A DNA stretch of 64,000 nt from Phoronis australis (lineage: Eukaryota > Animalia > Phoronida), in the NCBI GenBank assembly GCA_002633005.1, contig NMRA01000350.1, positions 7,642-71,641 of the forward strand. Direction: 5' to 3'. Position numbers and translations under genes: made by a program. The notes under the pieces are model-generated. The model saw only the letters and a list, made by a program, of their open reading frames with translations. It searched no databases and had not been told where the DNA came from. Shown here piece after piece: positions 1,115 through 41,772 of this stretch (position 1 is its first letter; every line of letters begins with the position of its first letter).

Positions 1115-1164
1115 GTAAGTTTTGTAAACAGGGTCGAACTTATAGTTCTATATAAGAAGCAACT

Positions 1165-2662: not shown

Positions 2663-2692
2663 TAATTAAATTAATGGGCTTTTCTGTTTCAG

Positions 2693-3813: not shown

Positions 3814-4152
3814 TACCATGAAGCTGTCAACTGGTCCTTGGTGAACTTTAGAGTCGATGCATTCCCACGTTTCTTGGACCCCCGCAGGGTTCTTTATCAC
3901 GTGAGTGAGAAACTAATCGGAGGAAGTTCTGGATGTCCAGGACTGGTCAGCGATGGACAAGACAATGCTTGTGTAGCTGTGGTCAACACCTTCCAATTTC
4001 CTGATGTGCCTCAGCACTTAGTGGCTGCTGTCCATATCCCTGACGAATATATTGTGGAACAGGGTGTTCGCATCGAAGCCATCTATCGTGATTTGCATGA
4101 ACAAAATGCTCTTCTTTGTGACGACATATTTCCACATGGAATGCCCACCTGA
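3814..4152 (+). CDS. FAM111A-like: FAM111-like protease, terminal exon with catalytic Ser
   Basis: Acceptor catttttacag|, phase 0. VLYHVSEKLIGGSSGCPG (GxSGxP), then IVEQGVRIEAIYRDL resembling the FAM111 C-terminal IEFG..MESILLDI helix; stop TGA 4150-4152. Confidence 0.88.
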   Translation, partial: YHEAVNWSLVNFRVDAFPRFLDPRRVLYHVSEKLIGGSSGCPGLVSDGQDNACVAVVNTFQFPDVPQHLVAAVHIPDEYIVEQGVRIEAIYRDLHEQNALLCDDIFPHGMPT

Positions 4153-10377: not shown

Positions 10378-10481
10378 TCAGAAAGGTATTTTCGAAAGCG
10401 GCTCCCTATAACAGATCTGTACAATGTTCAGGAGTAAATCGTCCACTGTTCTTATCTCGACCGAGCCCAAATCTATGGCAT
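10378..10481 (-). CDS. CARMA-like exon 23 (GUK C-terminus, stop)
   Basis: Acceptor ttgtttacag|, phase 1; (D)AIDLGSVEIRTVDDLLLNIVQICYREPLSKIPF*. Confidence 0.75.
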
Positions 10482-13400
10482 CTGTAAACAATGTACAATA
10501 AACTGTAATACGATCAAATGAACATAAACTTGACAGCATGAAAATTCAAAAAAGTTTCGGTGCCCAAAACGGTGATAAAATTTCTACTATTTCTTTACAC
10601 AACATGTTTCGATTGCAGCAAATTCTCGACAAAATCTCGACAGATGTAGTTCCATGTACTTTGTCAACATTGCAACAACTGAGCATTGCGAGTCCATTCA
10701 CAAATGAATATGTAATTATTGGCCTGGTCACATTAAACAGTCTGGAAAAATATTATCCAGGTTTGGCAGAGTCTGATAGAATTCTATCGAAGTTTGTCAA
10801 GACTATTTTGAAAGCCTCTAAGTACATATACCATCAATATGTCTTCCAAATCATCAGTAAATTTCACGAGAACAAAAAGCAAACTTGACGCATGCACTAA
10901 CAGTGGTTTCCTGATTTCATCAGATTCTCGCTGTACTCAGTATTTCAGGGATAGTTTCACACAGAGTGCGGGATTTCACTTTCCATTTGACCATATCTGG
11001 TTACAAAATTAAATGAAAACTCTAGAAATCCACCGAACTATGGGATCGAGACAACTCAAATCATTTTGGCTACTTTTTTGATTTTTCCTAATTGGCTTCA
11101 TCTCTTCAACAAATCTATACCGTAGTTTCGAAACTTGGAACTTAAGGCACAGAAATGATAAAGTTTTAATGGCATGCTTGCACTAAAAGTTGTATGTACA
11201 GAACTTAAAAAAACCTGGTAATTTACGACACCAGAAAAGTAAACCGTGTTTGTTATATGCCAGACCAACAGGGTGAACAAGGTTATTTATCATTGTTTCA
11301 TGTTTTCTCGTAAAAAATTGTAATTGATAAACTCCCGCATTTGATAGGCTCAGAGAAACTATTAGTCAAAAATGGAATAACAAGAGACAAATTGGCCTTC
11401 GGAACACCTTTTGTAAAATTATTACTTGCAGAGAAAAAGGGCAGAAAAAATGATGCCAGTTACAGCTTAACCCACACTTCAAAAGTATTATGGTGGGGAA
11501 AAGGCCTATTTTGTGGACTTGACACGAACGATTTATGATTTCAATTAAAACTGTCCCATCAAAAACAAAAGAAATAGAAAATAGCTGACATTAGAAAAAG
11601 ACTGTCACGCAAAATCATCCATTCGAATGAATATTTGCTAACCATCATGTAAATGCCTTGTAAATTACGGAAACGGAATCTTCGACCTTAGTTGTCCTTG
11701 CCTCTTGAAGTGGAAAATAAAAAGGTAAATAAAAAACCTATCTGCAGTTTGACAAAGAAGCAAATGTTTCAAATAATGAACTTGTATTTTCATAACAAGT
11801 CTTTCAAGCCCAGTGACCTACCATAAGATTGACCTCTCAAAAGCACATCCTCCGTTTTCTTGCCCATCTGAAGTTCTTGGTTAACATCAGCACTTCCGTT
11901 ACTGCATATCTCAGACCTAAGTGAAATTACGTCAAGAGTCAAAACAATAATAAGAGCAACGTGGAGCATTGAAATGCATCCACAAATGCATGACAAATGG
12001 TTTGTTTTTAAGGTACCGTAATTGGTTATTTGTTTCATAAAAATGGTCGCCACTTTTCAAAACCATCCTTAGAATGATTTGGTTGATAGAGAAGTAGATA
12101 CCAAAAAGCAGACTCGAAAACAGCAAAAATGGCCACTAACTGGCACAAAGTACCTTGATTCCATCCGGAAATGGGAGGATAGCGTCATCTCACCAATAAA
12201 TTTTTTATGAAGATACAGAGATAAACGTAAAGCTAAAATTGCCACCAGGGGGCATACCAGTAGTCAGATGCATCCCAAAATCATCGTCGTCTGTTGTCAA
12301 CATCATATAAACACACTTTTTAAATTTAGTAAAGATCCTGCAAACGGTTTAGGAGATACAGCCATGGGTGCAAAAAAAAAGAGACTGCCACTAGAAGACA
12401 CCAGTAGTCGAAGACATCGGGAAATCATCCTCAGCCGTCCACTTCATAGTAAAAACATACAAGCCAATTTTCACAATTATCCTGAAAGCGGTTTGGTTGA
12501 TACAGGGGTGGACGTCAAAAAACAGACTCGAAAACAGTACAAATGGCCACTAAGTGGCGCAAACTACGTCAAATCCATCCGAAAACGCGAGGATGCCGAA
12601 GATACTGAGATTAATGCAAAAAGTAAAACTCCCTATAGGGGGCACAATGGTGGCCAGATACACACCAAACTCTTTGCCGTTCCCCTGTGATGGGTTTAGG
12701 GATACAGCCACCGAAACTAAATGGCCACAAAGCGTACCATCCAAAACAGGCAGACCCATTCAAAAATTAGAGCAACATGTGCTACATCGTCTCACAAGGA
12801 ATATACTCCGAAATTTTCACAAATATCCTTCAGGCGGATAAACAAATGGATGCCGAAAAGAGACTTAAAATAATAAATATGACCACTAGGTGGCACAAAA
12901 TACACCAAATCCAAATACTGCTGTTCAAACAATGAACAAGTTTTACTTTCAATAACAAATTAAATGTTATATACAAAGTGTTTAAAATGGGAGGGAATGA
13001 TTGTTGCCACAAACAGGCAACGGCTCTCAGTGACACACACATCTACATTCCCGAAGTCGATCACGTGTGAAGTTCAGGCACAGTGCAGGTAGGTGCTTAT
13101 AATCACAACTGGTATGAAGCATGCACAGTCGCATGGTTGGCACGAGATGCAGGGCGTAATGTTGTACGGCATGCTAGTCAGCAAACCACCTTTGATATTA
13201 AAACACTCAGAGAAAATCTTGAAAAATATAAATTTTTAAATTAGTCTTTTACATTTTCCAAGGAAGAATTTTCGCATGATACTCAACAATAAATGGGACC
13301 CACCAAAGTGTGCCTGGAGGCATTAATTGCGATGGTCGAAGAAACACAACATTCAAGTCCATGCCGACTGCTTTGAGACGAGAGGAGAAGGTCACAACGT

Positions 13401-16400
13401 CTTGAACATCAACATCAGCAATGCAAAAGTAGTTCTGAAATTATATAACTGAGTAAACCTATTGTTTAGTTCACACGTGTCATGGTGTTAATTCTTATCA
13501 TCTATTCTAGTCAATATGACACAGAACAAATGTCCATAGCTTAAAACAGAATTAAGACAATTGGTCATCCATAACTAAAGTCATACTCAATAAGACCCGT
13601 TAGCAAGTGTCCATCACTGAATTTGCAGTCAATAAAGGTCTTGGTCATCCATAACTAAAGCCATACTCAATAAGACCCGTTAGAGAGTGTCCGTCCTAAA
13701 GTTGCAGTCAACACTTGGTCATCCATAACTAAAGCCATACTCAATAAGATGCTCAGTAGATGTACATTGCTAAAGTCCGAGTAAATAACACATTCAGCAG
13801 ATGACCATTTACTAAACTTTAGTCAGGAAGACACTGAGCAGGAGTCCATTACAACAAGACACTCGGGCAATTGTCCATTGCTACAGTGTATCCATGCACA
13901 GAGGTCACAACTTCTTTGCTAAAAAAATTGTTAGTAAATAATACAATGAAGAGAAAACGCTACAGTACTGTACCCAATACATGGAAAAACTGAAGCACTG
14001 AACATCATGAAGTCAATATGTTATCCGTCAACTTTCATGAGTATATCAGTTAATACTTACTTGAACAGGCTACAAGTTAGTACTTACAGTGCAAATTTAA
14101 CTCCAACTTACTGATTTTAATATTCATTGATGCACACATTGACATCTGAAATCTATCCTTCATGATGCCAACAAATTGTTGATGTTCTAGAAATTGCAGT
14201 CATGAACAAGGTAAAAAATATTATTCGGAGTTGAGTATATTAACCCAGCTAAATAATGTTGAACAACAATGCACAGAGACTGCAGCTGCATTTTTTCATT
14301 GTTTACCAAAGCATTCTTTTTCACAGATTCTGTTGCTAAGACGCTGAAGTTAGACACTCCACATTTCACGCAGTGTAGAATTTCATTCTTCAAGATCCAA
14401 TGCACAACTTCCTGCTCAGAACATATTCGGTTTTCTGAAATAAAACAAAAAATTAACTCAGTAAAATGTAAATCACAAAACACGAAAATCAAAATAAAAA
14501 AAGTTAACCCACTAAAAACAAATGGGAGGAAAGAAACTCCAGATTCAAATAATGAAACTAATTAATCAGATTCTAATGATTCAGAAACTTTGACACTCCA
14601 CATGACTGATGCACTTTTAAAAAGTTACCGCATTTAAGGTTTATTTTCAAAATGATTCACATTATTTTACAATCGCATTCATTGCAATCGTTCTAACACA
14701 GCAACAAGTGGTCACTGACAAAGGCCCCGGATTTTGGGAACCAATTCGATATTCTCAAAATAAGGGATCCCCTTTGCCCACAATGGAATACAATAAAAAA
14801 AAACAACCCACTTGGTGCTGTAAGCTTCACAGCATACTTAGCGCTAACTCATCATACTTTCAGATGCCTGGATGAATCCTTGTCCATATTTTCATGCAGG
14901 AATTTTCAGAAGCAATCACCAATTATGACAACTATTGAATTGTTCAAAAACTGAAACATTATGTTTTTAAGTCTCTGCACAGCCACCACTGGTCGTAAGT
15001 TACGGCTTTCAGAGTTGTAAGTATTACATTTGTCAGCAGCAAACGTCAAATTTTAAGAAAATACTGAGAAAGTTCAACCAATAATTAATGATTTCAAGCT
15101 GTGTGTCTCATGCAACTAATGTTAATAACAAAGGGCTCACCCAGCGTACACTCCAGAAAGTCATGCTTCAACCGGAGCTCCTGCTGTACTGTGTACCTTA
15201 GCTGACAAGGTCCGTAGATAACAAGAAGCTTCTTGTCTGCATTAAATCAATGTAGTAAACATAGCAGGGGATTCCACCACACAAGACACTGGAGAGAATG
15301 GTCACGTGCTTCATTTGTAATGCATGGAACTATCTGCCGAAGACTTGCATGAACACATATCTCTCGAAAGAACCTTACTCTATGGAATGCAGCCCAGATA
15401 CACGTCTACACATGAATCTCATAATGTGAACTGTGTAGTCAGTGAATGAATCTGATATTCAGTTTGAAGGCAAAAAGTCTATGAAAAGGGTCACAATGGA
15501 TGTCAACATCAACCTTCATCAGAATGACTCATTTGAATACTCACGATGAGGCATGACAAGTTGTTTATTTAATATATATTACGGGTCAAGGGTCAAATGG
15601 CATAATTGACACCAAGAAAGGTCCGAGTCACAAACCACACCATAAACAAATTTTAGAACTACAGGATGGTACAAACTCACATTGATGCAGTCTTTGGTAT
15701 GGAACTTCCCTGATGCTCCCCTCACCTGTAAAGCAATAATATTGATTTTAATGATAATCATGATGCAAGTCAAAGAAATGATGTCATCTTCATTACTATC
15801 ATGGTGTTACAATGTCTGTCTGTTAGTATCTGTCTGCTGGAAAAACTTTCCACAGCGCAACACGTGGGAGTGGTCACTTCACTAGAAAACACTGTAACTT
15901 TTTGTGGGCTAAGTTTTGTGCTTCAAAAATGAAATTTGAAGATTTTCTGTAATTAAGACAGACATGCACAAATTAATTTGAAAACACATCGAAGCAAAAT
16001 CAACCCAATCATAAGTAAAGACAGGCGACTGTGTGGTCTGCACTTTGAATAACAAACCAGCACTGAAAGATTTTAAATCAAAGACAATAAATAGATGTTT
16101 CTTCTAACATTAGGAAACCTGTAGAATTTGATCACCTTATCTGCAATTAATAATGTCACGTGACTAAGTCCTTTTAGAAGTCTTTACTAGCAAACTAGAA
16201 ACAAATAGCCAAATAAAAACACCAATAACGACACCCAAACTTCATTTGATAATAATAGTCAAGATAAAATCTCAAAAAAAACGAATTTAAATTTTTTAAA
16301 ATAAAGTTAACTTGCTTTCATTTTATGAAACTTTTGAGTCCTATCTTTGATCGCCAAAGTGGAACATTAAAACAAAATATCTAACAGCATTCTGGAAAAC

Positions 16401-19400
16401 AGTGCATAAAACAGACTGTATTGTGTACCTTTCATAGATCCTATCGGTCATTTCGGAGATAACTTGACCAGCTTTCGACACTATTCTCAGGTGCTACACA
16501 ACCTTATGCAATAAGTGACGAGAATATGCAACTTTAACTAGAGTTACTGAACTTACCAAAAGGCATGTCCAAGGTACTTTTGCCTAACAGTTTAAGTGGA
16601 GACGTGGTGCATTTTGACAATAGTTCAGAAGCCCTGGAAAAATAAATTGAATGTTAATTTTGTAGTGGTGTAAAGACAAAATACAGTTATCGGAACAACA
16701 TTTAACACTCAGACTAGTTTGTGAAACTTTGATTAACGTTGCTAAAATTATTCGGACATCAACTGAACCCGACGTTGGGACAGTATGGAACATCCTTTAG
16801 CACAGATGTTTACACACAGATTGTATTAAAACTGAACCAGTCCAGTAACATTGCCTAGAAACACTAATGATCTGCTAAATTCAAAAGTACTATTAATGTT
16901 TGAACATAATTGTCACATGTTATACTAAGTACGGTACAGCTGAAGTCGGAGAAAAGCAGCAAATCTGAAATAAAACGAACCTGTTTTCACTAAGAATATG
17001 GCCAAACTGATCAGCATCACCAGTTTTCTTGTCGATCTTGCAAGCAAACCAGTCATACACTAAGTTTCCATAGCGATCAACCGCAGGCTTGCCCGTTCTG
17101 TCACTCCTTTCTACAGCTTTGTGTAATACCATCAGAATGTCTCCCTTATGTATATTTAGATAACCCGGAAGATGGCTATCTATCTCCATATTGGACCTAT
17201 GGAAACAGACAACAATTCAAAGGACAGTGTGAAATCTCATCAAACACAGTGCAGGGCTATGAGCAAAAGTTCTAAGCATTAATCTAATCTATGACCTGAA
17301 CGTGTCAGTGGATAGTAATCACTTCTAATCTGAAGAAGGAACTGCTTAAAAGATCTAAATTTTCATGGAAAATAGACCAATAGTGTTTGAAAGATGATCC
17401 TTTGCTTAGTCTTTACTTATTAACAAAAATAATTAGTCAGGAATGAGGCAAAAATAAATTGAATATCATTTTTGCAGCAAAATCTTAACACAAATTCTTC
17501 TGTTAAATGTGACTTAACTTACGTCTTGTAAGTCGGCATGAAATAGGCCAAGATTGATGGTTTTGTTTTTGCTGACAGAGGAGTATGACTGCCATGAACA
17601 GTTGAGAAAGTTAAAACTGAATACTTCTCAATGAAAGAAGCATTACACTAAGTGTAATAACAGCTTCTAGGGGGTGCTCTACAAGTTAAAAATAATCGGT
17701 GGTGCACAATAAGTTAAATCTATATGAAAATGTGAAGGTACTGTCATACATCAACTCTTTAGCAGAAACATATTGCAAATTTCATGACAAGATGTCAAAA
17801 ACTCCAAAGATACAGAGAAAAACGTAAAAAATTTTCGCCACCAGGAGTCAGTCACCGGAGTAGTCTGATCCATACAAAAGTTTTCGGTACCTGTTGCCAC
17901 TTTATAAAAATACACCTCAAGGAAGTCCAAAGATACATATTAGATAAATTAAAAAATGAAATTGTCACTAGGGGGCAAACCAGTAATCAGATCTATCCAA
18001 AATTTGCTTATGCTGTCTTACCCATGACAGAAGCATGACTACTTTGCAGAATTTCACAAAAAATCTGTCCAGTGTCTACAGAAGCAGGAGCAGATGTCGG
18101 ACAGAGATTACGGCATAATACACACATGGATTCTGTAAACAAGTGTTTCTGCGCAATGCTTAGCAGCAGGTGACTGTTGCCTACCTTATGAAAAACGGGT
18201 CTTCAGTGATCTTCACTTTGTCATACACTGACTGCAGGTGACGGAAGCCTGTAAGTGAAGAACATGAGAGCTTTATCAAAACAGCTTACCCTAATTCCAG
18301 TCAGTTTACTGAGCTGCGTTCCAAAACCATAAGACACTTGTGAGACACTTGCAACAAAAAACCTTCACTTATGGGACAGCCACTGCGAACTTTATGTCAC
18401 AATTCAACATTCTATTTCCATTGACCAATCACTTCTGTGACGTCCATTTTGGCAGTGTGCGCAAGTGAAGTCTTGAGCTATATCCAAGAAACACTTGCAC
18501 TCCAATTGAAGGAAACTTGTTCAACAGAAAGCAGCCCAGAATTCCTTTTTATCTTCAAGTCACTGCGAACAGGTTGAGTCAGACAAACAACAAAATTATT
18601 ATTTTTAGTTTTTGATTACAGAAAACAGCAATGCCCCTAAAACTCGCAGTTGTATCTTTAGTTAAAAGGTCATAATTGTTCTGAAAAAATATGCAGTGAA
18701 TCTTGTACAAGTTGGACGAAGGTGCAAGTTTACTGGTACCAATTCTCAAATTTGGGACAGACTGACTCCAGGATTTGGGAATGGAAACTCCCACAAAGGT
18801 TGAATGTTCTTGATTTTGGAATTTAGGACAGTTGAGATTTTGGCACGCTCACCATATTTCTTAAGTTTACGACAATGTGTTTTCAATTTACAAAGTGGAG
18901 AATTTTGTAACCTTTCCATTGATTCTTGGATTAAGGCTAGCCTGAGCAATGTCCAAAGTTTCCAAAGTTTGGGACAAGTTCCGACCTACCGTTGGCAAAA
19001 TAAAAATCGTCCACAGTACTAAATTGGAGGATTTTTACTGTTAAACAAAAGTCAACTTACAAGAGAAGTTCAGACTGCCCAAACTAGAATAATTGTATCA
19101 GGGAAATATAACCGACTTAAACATACACACGACTTACGAGCATCTAAATTAGTTTGAACTACTTTAAATATTTGCTGTATATTTATTAAACATTTTTTAA
19201 ACAAGAGCAACGTGGAACGTTGAAATGCGCCCACAAATGCACCGCTTACGATGTGCTTCTAGGGGTGTTTATTTGGAACATAATGGCAACTAGATGGCGC
19301 AAAATATGTCAAAACCAGTCAAGAAGTTGTATGCGTCATCAAAGCTATTTACCAAATTTCATAAAAATTCGTCAAGGAACTTCTGAGAAAACAGAGGAAA

Positions 19401-31400: not shown

Positions 31401-34400
31401 ATGTAGGTATTATTTTTCAAGATTTAATCGTGATTCTTAAGACTGATGTTTTGCTAAATGCTAGTGCCACTACTGTACAACTGTACAACCTATTGTTGGA
31501 CCAAGATGTGGTCAAATACCAACCTGACACTAATATGAAGAAATCAATCTAGTACACAGTCAAGACTGGAAAGGAGAGACATAATGACTGGGTGGTAGGG
31601 ATAAGAGCATTCAAAGGTAGGAATCTCCACCTCCATTGGAGGCCTGTAACATGACTGTAAACATCTAACTCCAGATCCACATATCAGTCATAGCATGTAT
31701 TCCGAAATGATTTAAACACTTGCAAACTGAAACTAACCTCATCCCTCTCCATCTGAATCTTCTTCAACTGTGTCCTCAGGTCCTCACCCTGTTCTTTGTA
31801 TGTAAGGCTTTCCTTTTTCAGATTTTTTACAGTAAGCTCGACTTCATTCAGTTGTTCAGCCATCTATAGAACAGTTTTGTGCCGAGGTGAACACATAAGG
31901 CATGCCCACTACGCATAAAGTACTACTACTTGAAACATTTTACTCGCAATTCAGGATATATTTTTTATTTTACTTCGGAAACGAAGCACTTCTGAAAGAA
32001 AAATTATCGCACCTCACTATGAAAAAGTGCACGGTAACTGCGCAATGTGACCAATCATAGCTTCCTACATGAACATGACCTCAGATGAGTTACAGAATGA
32101 AATAATCATGGGAAAATATTACAAGGACAGCCTATCAGCTGTAATTGACCGTATAATGAAAAGTGTCACAAAGCCATTACTTTTGACAAGATTGACTGCC
32201 CCTTTCAAAACTTGGCAATTATAAATGACCTATAGTATGAATAGTTTCTTTTCTTCAAAACCAATTCCCTATCAGGGCAAAAACTACAAGATACCAGTTT
32301 CCAGAAGTAAATTGGTCTTTTCATGATTTCACCACATTAAAAATTAGTAGGAAAGATGGCCTGCTAAGATTTCACCTTTTTTTTCTCCCCTTCTACATCA
32401 TGTAGCTGTTGTTGAGTCGCACACAGTTGCGAGCCAGTCTCTGAGCTTTTTTCCATGGCATCATTGTACTGTTCTTTAAGTATGGTTACCTGTTCTTGGT
32501 AGTTGGTTTGCACGTTCTGCAACACCTGTACCTCAAGAGAGTCCTGCAACACAGCGAAGCAAATGATACGTTATCAATTTTAGGCTTTTAGGGCACTTCT
32601 CCCCTTACTTCGTACAAAAATAATTGCCAAAATCGCAATTTATCCATTTTCCTTTAAGACTAATAGCTGAGCAGCAAGTAACGGGAACTTGAAATCTCAT
32701 ATGACATCTTAATTTCAACTAAAATTTTCTTACTTTAAATTTTTTGAAAAACTACACAAAATAGAATTTCACACATCAGGTGTTAAATATAGAGAATCTT
32801 ACAGTCGTCTCAGATTTATGATGGGCAAAAACCTCTTTGAAATTTCACCAAAATCCTGAGGCTCAGGGATTTCGACAAAATTTTCAAGAGGTTTTACACA
32901 TATCATCAGCCTGAGACAAGTGTAGGATTTGTTTTCTCCCATGAACTGTAAAAATCATCTTTTTGCAGAAAACAAAACGCGACATGCCTAAATCTTTCAA
33001 CCACAAGACGCAACTTTTGCACAAATGCGCTTAATGTGCAATGTAAATTCAGTTAATACTTTTCGTTAATACTTAGTTTTATTTTAAATTCAGCTTTTGT
33101 AACAAACGTTCAAGTTAGAATCTAATAATTAGTCTTTGAAGACTGCTAAAGAACACAGTCAGTAGCGCTTCCCCGCACGTAGAGCACAGAATAAACTTTA
33201 GTCGAAACAGCACAGCTAGACACTCTCACCGCATTCCTTGAGTTGGGAGTTGTCTCCGTTTGAATGAACGTGGATATGGAAATCAAGAAAGAATGAAGAA
33301 GGTGTTTGCACATCCTTCTGACTGGGAGTACGTACAAATGCAACACCCGATTTATACTTCACAGAATTCCGGTATTGTTTGGTTGGCGCGTTTGGTTGCT
33401 TGTTTCTTCTTTGCAGACGATAAAATGTAAGGCGTATGGCTTTTTACTTTGCACTACTTTGCGATTTCCCCATGTAATATAAAAAATTACGTAATCGGTG
33501 TCGTAACACATTCCAGGTAATGTGAGAAATAGAATTATCATGTGTCAAACAAGCAACACTAAAGTGGTAAGTATGATATCTGAATAATAGTGAGGAACTG
33601 CTATTCACTCAGTAGAGCCTTGTGGGATAGCTGTCTGCTTCCTTTACCAAAGTTCCTGCGCTCGAGTCCCACTGAGGTTTGTAGCTCCTCAACTGGGTTT
33701 ACTGCATATTAATAAAGCATAAAATGGTTCCAGTTGACCGGGGCAATGGGCCCACCTGAGAGGCTTGCAAATGTCTGTTGCAAAGTGTACCTGAGACCAC
33801 CTACAATGTGATTACATGCGGAAATACGGCCTTTTTCCACTATTTCTGAAAAAAGTTTTAGTTATTGTGCATCTTGAAAGAACTAGCTTTATCACTAACT
33901 ATCAGTTGTGTGCATGTTCTCATAGACTTTGCACTTTTTCTCAGCTGAAGTGACTTTCAATTATTGTTCTGAAATATTCTAGCATGGAGCGCAAGACCAA
34001 ATTTCTGACAGATGTCTTAAGTCATATTTCATAAAACAGACTCCAGTGAGGAAATTTTGTTATCGGATAATGGAATATGGCAACAGCGTCGCAATTCAAC
34101 ACTCAAGACTCACAACCTTTACCATCTCAGTGGTTTCCATTTTGCTAGCGTTCACTAAGTAAGAACTCAATCATGAAACACTTTTATTTCATTACGTGAT
34201 TTTTTAAAGATTTTTAACTGAGGAGTGGTCTCATTCTTGCTTTCACGAAATGCTTTCAAATTCATCACAATGGTGTGAAACGAAACTCACTATCAGACTT
34301 TTCTGCTGCGCCACCTGCTGGTGGAGTTGTTCGTTCTCAGTGCGTAGTGTCTCCAGTTCCATACGTCGCGGTGCACGCTCACAATCCTTTTGTAAGCGCA

Positions 34401-37400
34401 TCGATTTCTCCACTTCGCTGTTCCAACGATCTGTAATCAATCCGCAGATAATCTAATTAAATGTGCAATGACTGTGAGTTTTTTCGTGCTTTCAACCTGC
34501 GTGATAAGTGCTGCACCCGAAACAAATCAAATAATCAGAGGAAAAAGATAGGTCAATTAAACACTTAAACAAGCTCAGTTATGAATTATAAAAACCTATT
34601 GCATGGAAATCAGCACAAATTCAACGCTATGCATGGACAAAAACATGAAAAGGGCTTTTCAAAATCAAGACACCAGCAAATGGTTGCGTAGCAACAAACC
34701 TTTGAACTTGGAAACATCCACTGTGATAGCATCTCTTTCCTGCTTCAGTGCATTGTACCTCTCAGTCATGGCATCACGCTCCATCATATACTGCTGAGAA
34801 CGTAGTTTGGATGCGTCTGTCTCCTTTTTGTATCCCAGAGAACTTTCATACAGCAACTCTGAATCATGAAGGCACATAGCATACCAAACGCATCAGCTCA
34901 ACCATCCTTTGCACTCCAATCAAACACGTTTTGACTACTTTGGTGGGAACTCAATTAGTGTCTATTATTTTGTGCTCCTGCACATAATGGCTTAGTGAAT
35001 TACTGTCTAATCATAGTTTGCACTAGATGACCCCAGCATTAAGGTTAACAGGTCGAGAGTGGGAACTTGACATATTAGTATTTACTTGAAATTTAGAGTT
35101 TTTAATCAATTAGTTTGTAGCTCGAGCAGAGAACACCTTGAGTTCAATATATCTAGCAAATATTTTTCATTTTGCATAATAGTACATTCCAGTTCGGGTC
35201 ACTAAACGAAAAATTCTCACTATAAACAAGATCGACTAATAATGGACAACTGCACATTAATTGGTAGGTAAGATAAAAATCTCAAAGTGTGAAAATATGT
35301 CAGGCACTGCAAAAGGGGGACTGCTCCATACCTAGTAATCTAGTGGTCAAAAACAAGAACGATACCTTTTTCTCTTTGTAAAGTCTGATTCCGTTCAAGG
35401 AGGTGTTTATTATCTAACTTCAGTCCATGGCATTTATGACCCAGCTTGTTGTTCTTCACCTGCAGGACGTTGACCTTATCCTGATAGAAATAGGTTCCAA
35501 TTATAAAGGCAGCATAGGACATTACTATCAGTAAGTACATGTCAAGAGACCGGAAACTTTTTTCCATCACGACAGTTAGATCTGTTCTGTCAGCAAAAAT
35601 GACGAACGACTGCCGCAAACTTTCATTTATGGAATGGCTGTTCCATACTGATAACTTTCAATGTAAATATTATAATTTTTGATCACGACATCATTCTCAG
35701 TGGGACAATAATCAACATGGCACGATGAACTGACCATTAATAACTCCCAGACGTCATGACAGCCAAGAGACATCACATCATTTGGTATGAATATGAGAAA
35801 ATTTTCTTCACTGAATATATAATTAACGGAAATCATACTAATTGTACTTGACATGCCACTATAACTGCTCTCAAAGCAGTGGTTGGACTGCAATCGCATG
35901 GACACGCTGAAATCCCCAGGAGGTGGCTGAGCACTGACTGACTTAAGGGTCAGGGACAATATATTCATTAAGTAAATCTCCATTACAAAAATCTCGTTTG
36001 ATTTTTTAACTCCAGATGACAGTTGAATCCAGGTTGAAGTGCAGATATCAAATGTAGTACATTGCTTGGCATTCCTATCCTCTTTCACCCACCATCAGGA
36101 ATCCAAGGTATCTACCACTGTTCAAAGAATTGCAAAAACCTGGATTCATCAACTGGTAACAGAGAACTCAGTGTACGTGGGCTTGGAATGACCGATGACA
36201 AAAGAGAGAAAAAATTCCCAGGTGATGTATAAGACCGCAAATAAATAGGCTTGTGTGATAGAACTAGTTTTTGTGCTGAAAAATTGAACTGAATTAAACA
36301 TTTCTGCATGAACAAAGTCAAAATAATGATAAAAAGAGACAAAAAGAGGAAACAGGAAATTAAATAAGAGGGGGAATTGAAACCCTTAAAAGAGGAAAGT
36401 TGAAGCGGCCTAATCCTAACACAAAATGGCTGATTTCAATGAATTTATTCATGAAAAATGATCCTACTTTAACTTTAGACAATAGGAATTAAATTTGAGG
36501 AGTCAAACAGTTCAAAAACATCTCAGAAATCACCATCTCTATTCTAGTGTATTTTAGCCAGGCAGCGAGTGTTTTCCTGTAAGTTTTTAAACCTCACCTA
36601 GTAAATTGCTCTACTGGAATGAAAGGGATCAGATTCTCTGATAAACAGTCCCTTTCAAAACAGCAATACTATACAAATCTTATGACAAGTAGTTTCTAAT
36701 TAAATGCAATCATCCATCCTGACATGCATTAGTTTACCTGCAGTATGGCACGCCGCTGCACTTTTACAGAAGAGCAGTTGCCATGGAGCAACAGAAGAGG
36801 GAACAGCTGATTGGAGCAAGTTGATACCATGGCGGCCATTTTTGACACCAGTTTGATATTACAGCAGTTTCAACTACACGTCTGAACAGAAACTGGGCAG
36901 GCAAAGCAAAACGGGCCATCTCTCTCACCCTTGCACATGCAATAGCGTATATATGGGAGATTTGGTAGCATTCCACATGATTTCATTAACTGTTACATTT
37001 GCGAGCATGCACAGACAGTCTTCGAGTAAATGACTCAAGCTGACCCCGGCATGTTTGCGATCTAATGTCAGGTAAATGCAACTATAGAGTGAACCAAGGT
37101 GCATTGTGACAACTGTCCCTCGTATAAAGACAACTTATTATGGCTGGGTAAAAAGAATGAGACAAGAATTACCCGGCACAGTGGTGGGGAACTTAACAAA
37201 TCCCAACAAAACAGTCACACTACTTCAAGTTTAAACACTTGCTTTCTCAGTCTGTTGTCAGAGTATCATGTGTCTAGTATGTAAAATATTCCAACTTAAG
37301 TTGTATTCATTTACAAGTAACAGCAACGTGGAGTTTTGAAATGTGCCCATGACAGTGCGTTAGAGGTGCTGATGGGTATCATAAAAATGGCCATAAATGC

Positions 37401-40400
37401 AAAATAGTTGGCCAGACCGAATTCATTCCAAAGACGAACTGGCTGAAGTTGTCTTCATGATGTAACTTGTTTGTCAAATTTCATGTAAAACCACCAAGAA
37501 ACTCTGAAGAAAAAAGGCAAATGAGAAAATTAAAATTGCCATTTGGGGGCACTGCCGTAGTCAGAGCCGCACGAAGTCATGGGCAACAGCAGTTTCCCCA
37601 AAGAAAAACACCAACAAAATTTCGCAGAGATCCTGCAAACACAAAGGAAACTACAGGCATGACAAGATCACTACCACGAGATGCCACAGCTGTCAGACCT
37701 ATCTGGAAATCAACGGCTGACCCAGTTATGTATATGTGCCACTTAAAAATCCATTGGTCATCTATTAAGCTCATGAAAACCTGGATTGAAATTAATTTTA
37801 GATGAGAACCACTAGAAAATTTAATCATCTTCAGTGTTAGGGTACTGGAAGTATCTATCAAAATTTGACAGGTCTGCATCGAATATTTGGGCTTAACACT
37901 AATCAGATAAGGATAAACAAACGAAAGCTAGTATTGTCTAAACAGAATTCAACTAGCAGATGGTAGTAGAACACAGTTTCAATGAATAGAAACATAGTGA
38001 CCACAAGTCTTAGAAAGTGTAGGTCCCTATCCATTTTGATCGGTTTGCATGCTTGTGACTCATAGCCGAGTTGATGACAACTTTTGTTAAAGCTGACGTG
38101 AAGTAAAGAGTCTTAATTCTCTGAGTGTAGGTCCAGTTTTCAAAATTTACTGTTCAGACCAGCATTCTTTCAAAAAAAGAGAAAAATGTTTCGGCAACGG
38201 ACAAAACAGCGGGCCAAGCCATGGTTTTAGCTCCACTAAAATGGCAAGTTCTTAAATGGGCATTGGACAATGGAACAAAGAATGCAGTTAAAGTCTATTA
38301 CTAGGAAAGGGAATGACTCCACCCACTCCTACCTCCAAAGCTTGGTTACTGGTGCTCAGACTGTCAATCAAACCTCTTATCTCAGCTGCCTCATGATATT
38401 TTTCTTCCAAAGTCTTGGCCATGAAAGCTAGATGAGGAATGATGACAGATCCACGGCAGCCCTTCAGGTCAGCTATGAAACCTACAGACAGACAACAAGC
38501 ATGCTGCATTATCATACTATTGTGATCACTGGTCAAAAATAAGCAGGATAAGCTACAGCAGTGAAAAACTTCACTGAGGAATTTCACCAATTTTAGAGCA
38601 CAATACAACTGATGAGTGAACTATTATTTCATTATTTTTGCCAGGAAATTAAATGCTTTTCAAGTTTTATTCAATAGCTATTATTTCGGGCATTTTTTTT
38701 GAAAATGTGTGGGAACTGATAACAATGAAAGGACATTCCATGAGTTGGGTACAAGCCCATGTTTGACCGAGTTAACCCTAAATTTCATGGAGATAACAGA
38801 GTTCATCATACAACAGGGTGCCAATTTTACCACATCCTGAACGAGTTTTTTTCAATTTTTTTTAAAACGTTCTGTAAATCATCAACTTTGATTGATACAA
38901 TGACATCTAAACAGTCCATTATAGAGGTCTGACTTAAATTCAAAATGATTCTATTCAGGATCAAAGACTGAAATGTCAGACGTGAGACGGCATAATATTT
39001 TTTTCGGCTTGAGTACAAATTGAATATTCCACCAGTCTCAACATATGACGCCATAATTTTAAAAAATCAAAAAAGTTTATTAAACTAGAAATTCCATACC
39101 AATCTACCAATATCTGAGGTTCAGATCATTTCAAGTGATTATAATCCATGTTGTGTGCTCAATTTTTTGGGGGATGCAGTATTTCTACAAAAACTTAGCA
39201 CTGAAACAGTCGTAGTGAAGGTCCACATATAGGTGTATTTCCTGAACAAACACACCCCAACACAGACACATCCCCAACATAGACACACCCCCAACCTACA
39301 GACACACCCCCGACATAGACCACACCCAACCCACAGACACACCCCCAACATACAGACATACCCCAGCAGACAGGCACGTGGTATTGAATGGCCACAAATT
39401 TTGAAAACTTAATAGTGAAGCGCTTAAATCTCTGTAATAATCTAACTTAAACTCATCGTAATTGCATGCTCAACCTTAGAGTTCTTTGAAGCTTTTAATG
39501 CGATACGTGTTTGTATTGTAAATTTTAAATCTGAATCAGACAAAAAAGCAACCTGTAGCACCAATACAACAGGTCAACAAAAATGCAATGCTTAACTTAG
39601 GCTTGTCCCATATTACACAGTGATAAAACTCTCCTTGGTCCTGGAGGTAACAAAGAGCATTGCTTTCATTGACCTAATTTTAGAATGTCCTGCACATTTT
39701 CAGAGGTAATGCTAAAACCCTTCAAGGCATATATCTGAGGAAACATTCCAGGTTTCAACCAGAATTGAAAGCTATCTTTGAAAAAAGGGGGATTCTGTTC
39801 AGTTCAAAATTATCCTGAATTAAACTTATGCTATGCGCTTGCTTTGCATTTTCTTGTAATTGATTGGAGGCCAAATTAAAACACCACCCATCCACAGGTA
39901 TTTGTCAATCTTATTCAACTTTTTCCTATTGGGGTTACAGTCCACAGCACAGCAAGACTTTGTTAACATCGACAAAGTTATGCAGCATAGAAAAATGTAA
40001 CTACAAAGAATGTGACAACAAAGAACATTGTGGAATTCCAAGGATGCAAGCACGCCAGACTACAAAAGGGCTTGATGGATAATTCGGTATAGGGGGGACA
40101 TACAGGGAGATTCAAGTGTCCTTGTGTAATCCACGATACCCTTATTGGTCAATAGAAGACATGACTGTCATCTCGCAAGCAAATCTTGAATAGTCAAGTA
40201 CAGTTCACTAGGAGTGAGAAACGGGTTGAATCTCCATTTCAACCAAAAACAATTGGCCTCAAGCTCTGAGTAACGAGACAGGTGCTGTGTGTGAAAATCA
40301 TGTTCAACTTGATAGAATAAGCAATAATTAACATATGAACAAACAAACAAACAGACTGGTTTCATGAAACAGTAACATAGTACCTTTTGGCAATTTTTTT

Positions 40401-41772
40401 TTTCTGTGGACTTACCTGGTGGTGGCTTCCGTGCCTTTTTAGACGTCAGCTGTTCAAACACAGCGGGATTTTCATACTCAAGCCTTTCCAAAAATTTGTC
40501 AAACGCAGCCGGACCCTTGGTGTATAAAATGTCCAGAAATCGACCTGTTTTACAAATCAAATTGATTGTACAGCCATCAAACCAATTTCAGATCATCAAA
40601 GCAATGTACAGACACATAACAAAAGACATTAAATTTTGACAGAGAGACCGTGCACAGAATTGTCATGGACCTGTGATTGAGCAAAAATTACCAACATCAA
40701 TACAATATTTGTCTATCTCTACACGATGATAAATAAACTTACCGGGTTTTTCGACACAGTTTGAACATAAACAACATTAATTTTATCAATAAATATGGAA
40801 TAGGCGACTCTGCCACAAACGTCAACACAGTTTGCATAGTTGGAGCCAATGATGTCATAGGATGCATGACAATCGTATTTCAAGAAAAGTCAATTTCAAT
40901 CAATCTATTATGATCTTAAAGCTTTGAATGCGTCAAATTATTTTGCACTATGTGGACCGAATAGCTAAGAGAGGCATCGGAACTGTTCCACCAATCACAT
41001 CACTCCAAGAGGTTTAGCTGGTCACAGAGCTGGCAATGGATATTTTATTTGATTCATGACTATTAACATTTTAACAAGAGATAGGTAACACATTATTTCA
41101 TAGCTTAAACTGGCAACAATTGGCATGTACAATGAAGCCTCTTTACAGCACAGTTTCACGTGAACATCACGGAACCAGCCGAGACGGGTATCATTCCAGT
41201 ACCATTAACGGTATAAAAACTTAAGTTTAGCACTATTGTTTAAATTGCAATGAAAACCAAAACGTTCTTTGACTAAAATAGTCATTTTTTAGGTATTTGT
41301 GAGACGTAACTTTGCTTCATGAAGCCAATTAGTCTATATCGATTATTTTCAGAGGTTCCTCAGTGTTCAGATTCCTAAGTACAGTAAAGATTAACACACT
41401 CAGATAAACAGGCAAAACACCGTTTCCCAGTCACAACATATCAATCTAGCTTAAGTCTGCTGGTGAATGCCGCTTCATAGCACCCGGCAGCCATCTTGAA
41501 GGGGAATTCCACACGCACGCAACTCTGTCAAGATGGGGAACTCTGAGTCACTCTGTCTGAGTAGTTTTGACGCTTACTAAATACTTGCCTGCCCTCGTTT
41601 GGCTTGTTTGGTGTACATAACGGTTAGAGATCTCTTCGCAGTCCTCCTGTGACAGGACATTGTGCTCACGTAAGAACTGCAGGTAGCGCTCCGATATGAC
41701 ATTGCGGCTGAGAAAGTCCCGATTTTGATCAATTATTTCTTGGTAATGGAAACTCTGATCAATCGCAGCCAT
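10378..41772 (-). CDS. CARD11-like: Gene span: CARMA-like CARD-coiled-coil-PDZ-SH3-GUK (CARD-MAGUK) scaffold, 23 coding exons, 1000 aa
   Basis: Manually spliced exons sum to 3003 nt with compatible phases, AG acceptors and GT donors (one GC). Motifs TRAGRFLDILYTKG, FLERLEYENP, YKEQ..ERDEAISQR, NPEGFRHL..DPFFIRSN, WFACKID..GHILSENRA, LVIYGP and CIADVDVQ are colinear with CARD11 as recalled. Confidence 0.9.
11822..11916 (-). CDS. CARMA-like exon 22 (GUK)
   Basis: tttcacttag| to G|gtaggt, phase 2/1; (W)SEICSNGSADVNQELQMGKKTEDVLLRGQSY. Confidence 0.75.
11949..12910 (+). mobile_element. HINE/pearl-like dispersed repeat copy with internal tandem units
   Basis: Left end aataagagcaacgtggagcattgaaatgcatccac is shared with 19199 and 37313; internal units match 19550-20800; right boundary approximate. 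Confidence 0.7.
13304..13434 (-). CDS. CARMA-like exon 21 (GUK)
   Basis: aatttcag| to TG|gtgggt, phase 0/2; NYFCIADVDVQDVVTFSSRLKAVGMDLNVVFLRPSQ resembles GUK HCILDVDVQG..IFIxPPS. Absent from the ORF track. Confidence 0.85.
13561..13880. repeat. ~75-80-bp degenerate tandem repeat
   Basis: ttggtcatccataactaaag.catactcaataaga at 13561, 13641 and 13715, decaying afterwards. Confidence 0.8.
14307..14434 (-). CDS. CARMA-like exon 20 (GUK)
   Basis: ttttatttcag| to TTG|gtaaac, phase 1/0; ENRICSEQEVVHWILKNEILHCVKCGVSNFSVLATESVKKNAL. Confidence 0.8.
15141..15236 (-). CDS. CARMA-like exon 19 (GUK start)
   Basis: tttaatgcag| to G|gtgagc, phase 1/1; (Y)KKLLVIYGPCQLRYTVQQELRLKHDFLECTL. Confidence 0.82.
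15681..15725 (-). CDS. CARMA-like exon 18 (45 nt, SH3-GUK junction)
   Basis: gctttacag| to T|gtgagt, phase 1/1; GEGSIREVPYQRLHQ (MAGUK PY/SY strand). Confidence 0.8.
16557..16633 (-). CDS. CARMA-like exon 17 (hook helix)
   Basis: tttttccag| to G|gtaagt, phase 2/1; (R)ASELLSKCTTSPLKLLGKSTLDMPF. Confidence 0.82.
16981..17196 (-). CDS. CARMA-like exon 16 (SH3)
   Basis: tttccatag| to AG|gttcgt, phase 2/2; SNMEIDSHLPGYLNIHKGDILMV...DWFACKIDKKTGDADQFGHILSEN (MAGUK SH3 pattern). Confidence 0.9.
17660..18125 (+). mobile_element. Diverged copy of the HINE/pearl-like repeat
   Basis: aaattgtcactagggggcaaaccagtaatcagatc and caaatttcatga motifs; boundaries approximate. Confidence 0.5.
18185..18248 (-). 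CDS. CARMA-like exon 15 (PDZ-SH3 linker)
   Basis: cacttacag| to AG|gtaggc, phase 1/2; GFRHLQSVYDKVKITEDPFFIR resembles GYRKL..GDSFYIR. Confidence 0.88.
19199..20871 (+). mobile_element. Apparently full-length HINE/pearl-like non-autonomous element with ~450-460-bp internal tandem units
   Basis: 5' aaacaagagcaacgtggaacgttgaaatg; unit g(t/c)ggt(t/c)tggttga.agaa recurs at 19558, 20008 and 20467; 3' GAC-rich tract, short palindrome cacatataaatatgtg, then gtgcatgaaaa. Confidence 0.75.
21388..21465. repeat. 36-bp tandem repeat, ~2.2 copies
   Basis: gaaatgagatatgcga.gccta..(a/g)ctacaagacat twice. Confidence 0.8.
21482..21626 (-). CDS. CARMA-like exon 14 (PDZ C-terminal half)
   Basis: ttatttcag| to G|gtatct, phase 0/1; VECSDRDGVLQSLTLRDGSQEGQDRVRYAIMCAQPDSQINLCLMHNPE. 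Confidence 0.85.
22851..23007 (-). CDS. CARMA-like exon 13 (PDZ N-terminal half)
   Basis: tttttctcag| to CAG|gtaagc, phase 2/0; SASLNERNVSIPASFLQDFVEIRGEIVIGFYVFCVNTKQFEYDIREMDQVLQ. Confidence 0.85.
23338..23568. mobile_element. MITE-like element with long terminal inverted repeats
   Basis: tcaagcctgcagctcaggcccttgatcacgtgac ... gtcatgtgatcaagggcctgagctgaaggcttga; the inverted repeat extends inward (ttcccgattgtgg / ccacaatgctggga). Confidence 0.75.
23970..24205 (-). CDS. CARMA-like exon 12 (Ser/Pro-rich linker)
   Basis: gtcttgtag| to AG|gtataa, phase 0/2; PRYVEEDSFRVKTLYQRESHPHNLPVPSTPIMDSSPSS...FKRSRSLPGNCKMQN. Confidence 0.82.
25320..25397 (-). CDS. CARMA-like exon 11 (linker)
   Basis: aaattgcag| to GAG|gtattt, phase 0/0; IDNWPDRCEWTSSLLVEPSCSIKRKE. 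Symmetric exon supported by splice sites and an open frame only. Confidence 0.6.
26139..26189 (-). CDS. CARMA-like exon 10 (linker, 51 nt)
   Basis: ttactttgtag| to GGG|gtgagt, phase 0/0; YSMDRSFSEDDISESSG. Confidence 0.72.
26647..29218. other. N gap (27478-28379) flanked by a near-identical ~830-bp direct duplication (26647-27477 and 28380-29218)
   Basis: The copies differ by scattered SNPs and small indels and both abut the gap; probably unmerged haplotypes. Confidence 0.85.
29719..29928 (-). CDS. CARMA-like exon 9 (end of coiled coil)
   Basis: aatttcag| to GAG|gtaagt, phase 0/0; AISQRNTAQKACEQKIEERDQLVASKHNMQAKMDLLNNDICHLENQVRKLQQELEEATGTKTRYSGDSGE. Confidence 0.9.
31738..31863 (-). CDS. 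CARMA-like exon 8 (coiled coil)
   Basis: gttctatag| to GAG|gttagt, phase 0/0; MAEQLNEVELTVKNLKKESLTYKEQGEDLRTQLKKIQMERDE resembles CARD11 YKHRM..QLEEVERERDQ. Confidence 0.9.
32376..32543 (-). CDS. CARMA-like exon 7 (coiled coil)
   Basis: gtgttgcag| to AAG|gtgaaa, phase 0/0; DSLEVQVLQNVQTNYQEQVTILKEQYNDAMEK...VEGEKKK. Confidence 0.88.
32796..32928. repeat. ~133-bp imperfect palindrome
   Basis: Arms atcttacagtcgtctcag..aaaacctctttgaaattt and aaattttcaagaggtttt..ctgagacaagtgtaggat, centred on cctgagggctcagg. Confidence 0.75.
33612..33720 (+). mobile_element. Possible decayed tRNA-derived SINE head
   Basis: B-box-like gctcgagtccc at ~33660 downstream of a weak A-box-like segment. Confidence 0.25.
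34291..34430 (-). CDS. CARMA-like exon 6 (coiled coil)
   Basis: tgattacag| to ATA|gtgagt, phase 1/0; DRWNSEVEKSMRLQKDCERAPRRMELETLRTENEQLHQQVAQQKSLI. Confidence 0.9.
34700..34858 (-). CDS. CARMA-like exon 5 (coiled coil)
   Basis: atgattcag| to G|gtttgt, phase 1/1; ELLYESSLGYKKETDASKLRSQQYMMERDAMTERYNALKQERDAITVDVSKFK. Confidence 0.85.
35366..35480 (-). CDS. CARMA-like exon 4 (coiled coil)
   Basis: tttctatcag| to G|gtatcg, phase 0/1; DKVNVLQVKNNKLGHKCHGLKLDNKHLLERNQTLQREK. Confidence 0.85.
37313..37810 (+). mobile_element. Diverged 5' portion of the HINE/pearl-like repeat
   Basis: acaagtaacagcaacgtggagttttgaaatgtgccca left end; aaattgccatttgggggcac subunit. Confidence 0.55.
38333..38481 (-). 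CDS. CARMA-like exon 3 (post-CARD linker and coiled-coil start)
   Basis: tgtctgtag| to GAG|gtagga, phase 1/0; GFIADLKGCRGSVIIPHLAFMAKTLEEKYHEAAEIRGLIDSLSTSNQALE. Confidence 0.85.
39250..39375. repeat. Degenerate ~20-bp CA-rich minisatellite
   Basis: cacacccc(c)aaca.agaca repeated ~6 times. Confidence 0.75.
40416..40544 (-). CDS. CARMA-like exon 2 (CARD C-terminal half)
   Basis: gtaaaacag| to G|gtaagt, phase 1/1; GRFLDILYTKGPAAFDKFLERLEYENPAVFEQLTSKKARKPPP. Confidence 0.93.
41589..41772 (-). CDS. CARMA-like exon 1 (CARD N-terminal half; exon begins at the acceptor at 41780)
   Basis: aaaccATGG Kozak context; MAAIDQSFHYQEIIDQNRDFLSRNVISERYLQFLREHNVLSQEDCEEISNRYVHQTSQTRA(G); donor is CAG|gcaagt (GC-AG intron). 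Confidence 0.92.

Follow-up and report, generated by a model that had tools for sequence, protein, structure and literature searches.

An expressed gene with a CARD9/11-type CARD, a coiled coil, an SH3 and likely PDZ and GUK regions suggests that the CARD-MAGUK fusion is older than vertebrates

Results

A 23-exon gene with a single open frame

The window analysed here is a stretch of 64,000 nucleotides, the minus strand of which carries a gene that runs from an ATG at 41772 to a TGA ending at 10378. Its 23 exons join into a single open frame of 984 aa, and all are bounded by AG acceptors and GT donors, the sole deviant being intron 1 (GC-AG). Just one open frame is present in 20 of the 23 exons, and it is always the one demanded by the phase chain (product of chances 8.5e-11, an overstated value because the exon boundaries were hand-picked). 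The gene is real. A preliminary description had reported 23 exons and a 1000-aa frame; the exon number and the single frame were confirmed, but exactly 1000 aa requires 24 exons, with the inclusion of a 48-nt in-frame exon (25970-25923). Two other boundaries were discarded: a GT donor for exon 1 at 41577, which puts exon 2 out of its one open frame, and an acceptor for exon 9 at 29946, given up for 29928 on RNA contig evidence. A search of Rfam returned no matches. The features of the gene are listed here with the evidence for each.

41589..41772, minus strand: exon 1, ATG and first half of CARD, GC-AG donor, phase 1 at c.184 (Pfam CARD E 1e-6; PDB BCL10/CARD11; frame chain)
40416..40544, minus strand: exon 2, second half of CARD (PDB best match CARD11)
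38333..38481, minus strand: exon 3, LATCH-like segment (from position) and coiled coil start (frame chain, relatives)
35366..35480, minus strand: exon 4, coiled coil (frame chain, composition, weak homology)
34700..34858, minus strand: exon 5, coiled coil (as exon 4)
34291..34430, minus strand: exon 6, coiled coil (as exon 4)
32376..32543, minus strand: exon 7, coiled coil (as exon 4)
31738..31863, minus strand: exon 8, coiled coil (as exon 4)
29719..29928, minus strand: exon 9, coiled coil end (RNA contig piece 29719-29930, extra letters on both sides)
26139..26189, minus strand: exon 10, Ser-rich linker (splice signals and frame only)
25923..25970, minus strand: optional 48-nt linker exon (frame; same-strand reads at 25910)
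24385..24414, minus strand: exon 11, uncertain 30-nt linker exon, frame-neutral (splice signals only)
23970..24205, minus strand: exon 12, Ser/Thr/Pro-rich linker, basic-x-x-Ser sites (frame chain, RNA depth)
22851..23007, minus strand: exon 13, likely PDZ, first half (RNA contig joint to exon 14; motif by eye)
21482..21626, minus strand: exon 14, likely PDZ, second half (RNA contig joint to exon 13)
18185..18248, minus strand: exon 15, PDZ-SH3 link and first SH3 strand (comparison with relatives)
16981..17196, minus strand: exon 16, SH3 with ~16-residue insertion (comparison with relatives; SH3-clan Atlas match)
16557..16633, minus strand: exon 17, HOOK region, by position (frame chain)
15681..15725, minus strand: exon 18, HOOK end (frame chain)
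15141..15236, minus strand: exon 19, likely GUK start (by-eye comparison; RNA depth)
14307..14434, minus strand: exon 20, likely GUK (by-eye comparison)
13304..13434, minus strand: exon 21, likely GUK core (RNA joint to exon 22, 4/4 runs)
11822..11916, minus strand: exon 22, likely GUK (RNA joint to exon 21)
10083..10481, minus strand: exon 23, final 104 coding nt, stop ending at 10378, at least 295 nt of 3' UTR (RNA contig piece 10083-10481)

The N-terminal CARD is of the CARD9/11 type

Pfam identified a CARD on exon 1 and exon 2 (E 1e-6 and 8e-4, respectively), and the best PDB matches were CARD11, BCL10 and CARD9. CARD11 was the top match of exon 2 (E 4.5e-4), and exon 1 alone matched BCL10 slightly better than CARD11. 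By hand count, 31 of 87 residues are identical to human CARD11 in an ungapped alignment (~36%). Intron 1 lies at c.184 in phase 1, the same position as in CARD9 (c.184+5), and matches Gly74 of CARD11 (c.220+1; numbering anchored on C49), while intron 2 is in phase 1, as is CARD11 c.358. Three of the four basic positions with which CARD11 binds BCL10 (R35, K41, K69, R72) are Arg here (R23, R29, R60), and the fourth is S57. The Pfam and PDB matches and the common intron position thus agree with the preliminary description in assigning the N-terminus to a CARD9/11-type CARD; visual comparison with the CARD of human DLG5 showed that it is not of the DLG5 type, and the searches favoured CARD11, CARD9 and BCL10. 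By analogy with CARD11, the protein would likely nucleate BCL10 filaments.

Comparison of exon 1 with 1.84 billion representatives revealed no close orthologue; it gave seven matches, comprising two spurious repeats, four CARD exon read-throughs and one BCL10-like sequence (labelled by eye). A word search with exon 1 confirmed none of five candidates, and pattern scans of metagenomes confirmed 0 of 237 and 0 of 596 matches.

Gastropod proteins hold CARD and SH3-GUK in one chain

A CARD profile search, in which 7996 candidates were scored, yielded five proteins, four of them from gastropods and none a vertebrate protein, DLG5 or ZO. The relatives were Littorina XP_070186444, which RefSeq labels 'CARD14-like', Babylonia XP_076439753, Nucella KAL8597437, and an assembled contig of 2965 nt that encodes an 816-aa frame. 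These gastropod proteins are CARD-coiled coil-SH3-GUK in a single chain, and they are known from automatic annotation only, Pfam detecting the CARD alone. They share with the window protein a CARD (32-43% identical; pairwise z 25-37 against shuffles), a coiled coil, a Ser-rich linker, an SH3 and probably a degenerate GUK. They differ in the lack of a PDZ, the corresponding region being disordered in a predicted model, and identity across the CARD and coiled coil is ~21-25%. When one gastropod model was compared with known structures, the SH3-GUK of ZO-1/ZO-3 accounted for the top six of eight matches with E <= 0.001; this model was of low confidence overall (pLDDT averaged 53, and rmsd for the matches was 13-15 A), with a helical coiled coil at pLDDT 80-90. 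An alignment of single exons to the relatives scattered the exons and was discarded.

A coiled coil and a Ser-rich linker follow the CARD

Downstream of the CARD, aa 150-450 are rich in E, K, Q and R and form a long coiled coil. Pairwise comparison of this region with the gastropod relatives gave z 3.6-6.1 against shuffles. With a coiled-coil profile built from the relatives, the window model did not score above shuffles, and among four reversed controls there was one with an equally high score; a VIA search returned coiled-coil matches only. Between the coiled coil and the PDZ region lies a linker that is Ser-rich by composition, with S, T or P at 24 of 50 residues in aa 501-550 and five basic-x-x-Ser/Thr sites. 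Composition and weak homology therefore support the coiled coil and Ser-rich linker that had been described beforehand. By analogy, the linker would mediate autoinhibition.

An SH3 and likely PDZ and GUK regions complete the frame

The SH3 exon alone had no match in Pfam or in the PDB sequence search. Against the relatives, the SH3 scored 16 bits, with none of 1000 shuffles as good, and pairwise z was 7-12 against shuffles; Atlas leads of 0.85-0.88 fell in the SH3 clan. These comparisons bear out a MAGUK-type SH3. The preliminary description also placed one PDZ and a GUK around it in CARD11 order. The domain order and motifs recognised by eye against published domain sequences (PMC1978500 supplement 1) are consistent with this, but neither region had a match in Pfam, in the PDB sequence search (single exons) or in comparison with the relatives, and the window GUK and tail did not score above shuffles against the gastropod GUK. 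Between linker and SH3, the gene model has space for one PDZ of ~95 aa. Folded alone and without an alignment, exon 13, which is half a domain, gave one helix. Together, this region likely carries a PDZ and a GUK that is predicted to be catalytically dead.

By eye (PMC1978500), the putative PDZ of the window protein has an insertion of ~8 residues past the fourth strand, as do CARMA1/2, which is not in ZO-1 PDZ3 or DLG5 PDZ4. The SH3 starts with Asn and an aliphatic residue, as in CARMA1-3 and in all four gastropod relatives aligned, whereas the residue is aromatic in ZO, DLG5 and DLG4. The putative GUK retains a segment that CARMA and DLG5 also have and that is shorter in ZO. Hand counts of identity do not favour CARMA: the SH3 matched CARMA1 at ~18/66 positions, ZO-1 at 19/65 and DLG5 at 15/65, and the first ~120 GUK residues gave ~24 identities to DLG5 and 19 to CARMA1. 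Searches for intron positions in the MAGUK half of CARD11 yielded none for comparison.

The gene is expressed, possibly with a short isoform

When RNA runs of the same species were mapped to the window, reads covered exons 9-23 on the strand of the gene. The last coiled-coil exon (~4-6x), the exon that carries the SH3 (3-9x) and the final exon (5-8x) had similar depth, and three exon-free bins were near zero. The joint of exons 13 and 14 was present in one RNA contig, and that of exons 21 and 22 in all four RNA runs. Joints from the coiled coil to the PDZ were absent among the 15 of 389 joints listed. The RNA check of CARD-to-GUK continuity proposed earlier was thus answered in part, by expression of exons 9-23 and two MAGUK-region splices but by no CARD-to-GUK joints among those listed; we infer that CARD and GUK lie on one transcript. 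Read-through of the 48-nt exon leads to a stop and an ATTAAA at ~25900, and same-strand reads of uncertain origin lie at 25910, past the donor of this exon (16 in X1, 8 in X2). This suggests a possible 501-aa CARD9-like short isoform.

Discussion

Current accounts regard CARD9 as ancestral and link the MAGUK fusion to the emergence of adaptive immunity in vertebrates; the fusion is placed in jawed vertebrates (PMC5978004, bioRxiv 046789) and CARMA is called vertebrate-only, in line with the background given in the preliminary description. We consider it fairly probable that the gene reported here, expressed and likely from an invertebrate, with a CARD9/11-type CARD, a coiled coil, a Ser-rich linker, an SH3 and a likely PDZ and dead GUK, derives from the same ancient fusion as vertebrate CARMA. 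The protein resembles CARD11, CARD14 and CARD10 in its CARD type, its size (984-1000 aa) and the phases of its first two introns, it keeps most of the basic patch for BCL10 binding, and it likely matches them in domain order, with CARMA-like features in the SH3 and the putative PDZ. Unlike them, it very likely belongs to an invertebrate, shares only ~27% SH3 identity (hand count) besides the modest CARD identity, carries an SH3 insertion and has lost the Gly-Gly-Asn motif of the PDZ. CARD9 and invertebrate CARD-CC proteins (PMC5978004) share the CARD-coiled coil-linker front and the c.184 intron, and the possible short isoform resembles them, but they are described without a MAGUK module, whereas expressed SH3 exons follow in frame here. 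DLG5 also carries an N-terminal CARD on a MAGUK in invertebrates, and the putative window GUK resembles its GUK, but DLG5 differs in the type of its CARD and in having four PDZ domains. ZO proteins have three PDZ and no CARD, whereas this protein has a CARD and room for one PDZ.

By analogy with CARD11, the protein would rest closed via the linker and be opened by PKC-type kinase phosphorylation. The coiled coil would then oligomerise it, SH3-GUK would cluster it at the membrane, and BCL10 filaments would be nucleated and a type 1 paracaspase recruited. Since lamprey and acorn-worm paracaspases do not activate NF-kB in human cells, the output may differ.

A CARD9-like CARD-coiled coil gene could instead have gained the final PDZ-SH3-GUK stretch from a copy of DLG5 (or ZO) within an invertebrate lineage and converged on the CARMA layout, in which case the protein would still be a CBM-type scaffold and be silent on the age of vertebrate CARMA. 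The GUK count, the SH3 equally close to ZO-1 and CARMA1, surveys of sea urchin, Ciona and amphioxus that found only CARDs and no PDZ/SH3/GK, and lamprey and tunicate forms described as CARD9-like all fit such an event. We regard it as unlikely in view of the insertion in the putative PDZ, which is of the CARMA type, and of an SH3 that starts as in CARMA and in the gastropods and ends like that of CARMA and ZO and unlike DLG5. Furthermore, ZO and CARMA have been published as sister monophyletic groups, with ZO present in placozoans (PMC2859873), so that the CARMA line would itself predate vertebrates. Less probable still is survival of an old CARD-group MAGUK lineage that predates the DLG5/ZO/CARMA split and acts outside BCL10 signalling, as a scaffold for junctions or polarity. 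A CARD-PDZ-SH3-GUK protein of the sponge Amphimedon, reported in 2010, has a CARD at the N-terminus of an invertebrate MAGUK and is sister to DLG5+ZO+CARMA (PMC2859873), and by hand counts the window SH3 and GUK are nearly equidistant from all three groups. However, the window CARD matches CARD11/CARD9 and not that of DLG5, has an intron in common with CARD11/CARD9 and retains most of the basic patch for BCL10 binding; the sponge protein is set apart by its described branching outside the three groups.

It is just as improbable that the locus holds two neighbouring genes or makes mainly a short product, with a CARD9-like gene that has 25970-25898 as its last exon and, downstream of it, a PDZ-SH3-GUK unit that is separate or only rarely joined. 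The reads, stop and ATTAAA near 25910, a 903-base gap in intron 9 and the linker joints missing from those listed would suit this arrangement. It is countered by exon 9-13 phases that fit without slack, by the lack of any alternative start seen for the MAGUK half, by RNA depth alike on both sides, by an exon 9 depth (~6x) below what a dominant short form at 16x would require, and by relatives with both halves in one chain, one of them on a single contig. A vertebrate host takes the smaller share of this already low probability, given a CARD 36% identical to CARD11 and a CpG o/e of 0.56.

On the favoured CARMA-like reading, the MAGUK half would be orthologous to that of CARMA. As the gastropod relatives share most of the layout, the CARD-MAGUK domain fusion likely predates vertebrates, and these named proteins strengthen the claim independently of the species of the window. 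The earlier proposal of a pre-vertebrate CARMA fusion is partly upheld, by the architecture, the CARD9/11-type N-terminus and the gastropods; orthology of the MAGUK half to CARMA rather than DLG5 is putative. The proposal of an undescribed system did not survive, with a CBM complex traced back to cnidarians, the sponge protein and the 'CARD14-like' Littorina entry against it. A CARMA-like layout is present outside vertebrates, contrary to papers that confine CARMA to vertebrates. The novelty is best read as revised evolutionary timing.

More tentatively, and at a little short of even likelihood, a single fusion occurred before the protostome-deuterostome split, CARMA is ancestral, and CARD9 and 'CARD9-like' forms are truncations or overlooked degenerate CARMAs, with this gene perhaps making a CARMA-like and a 501-aa product by alternative polyadenylation. 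Surveys could miss a degenerate SH3-GUK because Pfam does not detect it. CARMA-like proteins in gastropods and this genome would overturn the CARD9-first order and date membrane-clustered CBM signalling to the innate immunity of early bilaterians. Natural forms with and without a PDZ would also help to ask what role the MAGUK module has.

Gene structure and expression

The window holds a real gene with a CARMA-like architecture (CARMA being CARD10/11/14) in a likely invertebrate, and this assignment is supported by relatives in gastropods.

Minus-strand coding features:
41772 to 10378, minus: CARD gene, 23-exon chain, 2955 nt, single open frame, 984 aa
25970-25923, minus: optional 48-nt exon, frame-neutral, whose inclusion gives exactly 1000 aa

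The preliminary description of 23 exons in one open frame of 1000 aa was correct in its exon number and frame, but the 23 exons, with the TGA ending at 10378, yield 984 aa, and 1000 aa requires the candidate 48-nt exon; the earlier model was probably this chain with the additional exon. AG is present at every acceptor and GT at every donor except that of intron 1 (GC). A GT lying 11 bases beyond this GC donor (41588) would disrupt the frame. A single frame is open in 20 of the 23 exons and matches that required by the chain, the candidate exon 11 (30 nt) is frame-neutral, and GC content is 45% in the coding sequence compared with 38% over the gene span.

Four RNA runs from the same species were mapped to window positions 10000-29990, which contain exons 9-23. 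The exon 21-22 joint was found in all four (4, 12 and 10 reads, plus one contig), exons 13 and 14 were spliced together in one contig, and contig pieces agreed with exons 9 and 21 and with exon 23 including the 3' UTR. First mates lay on the plus strand, where most stranded library types would put them for a minus-strand transcript. Per exon base, depth was of the same order from exon 9 through exon 23 and approximately zero in three exon-free bins, a comparison using 19 of 30 bins, with repeat-dominated bins omitted and two bins inflated by repeats. Joints from the coiled coil to the PDZ were absent among the 15 of 389 RNA joints listed, most of which came from repeats.

Reads on the gene strand were also observed at 25910, beyond the donor of the optional exon (window 25970-25875, minus). 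Read-through here reaches a stop and an ATTAAA at approximately 25900, and would yield a 501-aa CARD9-like isoform. Since every such read shows at least three differences from the assembly, these reads may derive from another locus. An intronic repeat family (12001-12667 and 18671-21338) attracted tens to hundreds of strand-biased reads at 90-95% identity, and is therefore abundant among the organism's transcripts.

The CARD

The CARD is confirmed. Exons 1 and 2 each matched Pfam CARD, and PDB searches matched exon 1 to BCL10 (E 5e-4) and weakly to CARD11, and exon 2 to CARD11 as top match (E 4.5e-4). Intron 1 (c.184, phase 1) is common to CARD9 (PMC12307477; residue register from the PDB alignment of exon 2) and CARD11, where it falls at Gly74 (PMC7820631). 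By hand count, 31 of 87 residues are identical, ungapped, to the human CARD11 CARD (PMC1978500 supplement 1), where the fish and human CARD11 rows are much more similar to each other. The basic patch needed by CARD11 to bind BCL10 comprises R35, K41, K69 and R72 (PMC3411838); in the alignment R35, K41 and R72 correspond to window R23, R29 and R60, and K69 to S57. The window CARD is closer to some gastropod CARDs (up to 43% identity) than to CARD11.

The SH3 and the probable PDZ and GUK

Searched singly, the SH3 exon and the candidate PDZ and GUK exons had no match in Pfam or PDB, and exon 13 was predicted to fold alone as a helix. We describe these domains by eye against sequences in PMC1978500 supplement 1. 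The region ahead of the SH3 conforms to the PDZ pattern, and this putative PDZ has an insertion after the fourth strand, as in CARMA1 and CARMA2, that is absent from ZO-1 PDZ3 and DLG5 PDZ4. The SH3 starts with Asn then an aliphatic residue, as in CARMA1-3, whereas Hydra ZO shares the Asn but retains an aromatic; its end resembles CARMA and ZO. The putative GUK retains a segment that CARMA and DLG5 have in common and that is shorter in ZO; the long stretch at the nucleotide site of DLG4 is missing from it. Judged by these sequence likenesses, CARMA alone would agree with all three features (PDZ insertion, SH3 ends and GUK segment). Approximate hand counts of identities are flat across groups (SH3: ~18 CARMA1, ~19 ZO-1, ~15 DLG5; GUK: ~24 DLG5, ~19 CARMA1) and are no replacement for a tree.

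Gastropod relatives

A profile built from exon 1 and CARD exons found with it recovered four proteins from 1774 candidates: Babylonia (XP_076439753), Nucella (KAL8597437), Littorina (XP_070186444) and an 816-aa protein encoded on a single 2965-base contig. A second CARD profile added a Batillaria protein. RefSeq labels the Littorina isoforms 'CARD14-like'. In Pfam, CARD alone was above threshold in these relatives; its top match was CARD11 (E 6e-9; 3e-10 with a profile). Against the relatives the window protein scored 66 bits in the CARD and 16 bits in the SH3 (0/1000 shuffles for each), and its coiled coil, linker and GUK did not match their profiles above shuffles. In pairwise tests the coiled coil reached z 3.6-6.1, and neither PDZ nor GUK gave a signal. 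Of the proposed PDZ, SH3 and GUK in CARD11 order, the SH3 thus has statistical backing, and the PDZ and GUK by-eye likeness.

The AlphaFold model of the 816-aa relative (mean pLDDT 53) shows a long coiled coil followed by a disordered linker that contains no PDZ. Foldseek matched its tail best to ZO-1 and ZO-3 SH3-GUK (6 of 8 matches, E <= 0.001, rmsd 13-15 A for these six); the others were PALS1. Because of the relatives' sequence matches and this modelled ZO-like tail, molluscs have CARD-coiled coil-SH3-GUK in a single chain, independent of the window's species. These caenogastropod proteins differ from the proposed window layout in having no PDZ. The Batillaria gene model also lacks the SH3, which may be a gene-model error. 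A 140-aa protein retrieved with the exon 1 search resembles invertebrate BCL10 by eye.

Evolutionary position and function

The MAGUK fusion (PDZ-SH3-GUK) has been placed in vertebrates (PMC5978004, bioRxiv 046789, 228767, 2023.03.06.531260), as the preliminary description stated, and CARMA described as vertebrate-only (PMC2859873). For sea urchin and Ciona, CARDs only are reported, with PDZ, SH3 and GK 'not found' (PMC1978500). Our search of the openly accessible literature, judged from listings and the opening lines of abstracts, found no description of a bilaterian invertebrate CARMA; the sequence file of PMC5978004 and the supplements of the bioRxiv papers may hold some unrecognised. A CARMA-like gene here contradicts the stated model of a vertebrate fusion, and is directly testable. 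The proposal of an undescribed system does not stand: the CBM system (CARD scaffold, BCL10 and MALT1) is known, as is an invertebrate CARD-MAGUK layout, in a sponge CARD-PDZ-SH3-GUK protein that is sister to DLG5+ZO+CARMA (PMC2859873).

In CARD11 the linker is autoinhibitory until a kinase opens the protein, after which coiled-coil oligomers form, SH3-GUK mediates clustering and BCL10 filaments are nucleated (PMC6156143, PMC5978004). By analogy, it is reasonably probable that the window protein functions like CARMA: its linker would hold it inactive at rest, a kinase would open it, and it would then oligomerize via the coiled coil, cluster through SH3-GUK and nucleate BCL10 filaments. BCL10 is present in molluscs, annelids and hemichordates, and Nematostella CARD-CC has low, MALT1-dependent activity in human cells (PMC5978004, bioRxiv 046789). 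Since lamprey and acorn worm paracaspases did not activate NF-kB in human cells (PMC5978004), we do not assume NF-kB as the native output.

Surrounding sequence

The window has a GC content of 38% and CpG o/e of 0.56. Together with the 838-bp duplicate listed below and the closeness of the CARD to some gastropod CARDs, these values make an invertebrate host very likely; that it might be a lophotrochozoan is a guess.

Neighbouring features:
880-4152, plus: trypsin-like peptidase gene exons (Pfam Trypsin_2, E 0.003 and 0.0004)
26648-27477 and 28381-29218: 838-bp duplicate, 97% identity, flanking an N gap on both sides
42125-42484 and 46037-46375, plus: two mutually similar THAP-domain ORFs (E 3e-11, 6e-11)

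The duplicate probably reflects two haplotypes that scaffolding brought together. Two near-duplicate ORFs, at 42760 and 43696, are similarly placed about a lone N at 43573. The THAP ORFs are likely transposon remnants, the first lying ~350 bases upstream of the CARD-gene ATG. The peptidase gene, FAM111-like in appearance, converges on the CARD gene.
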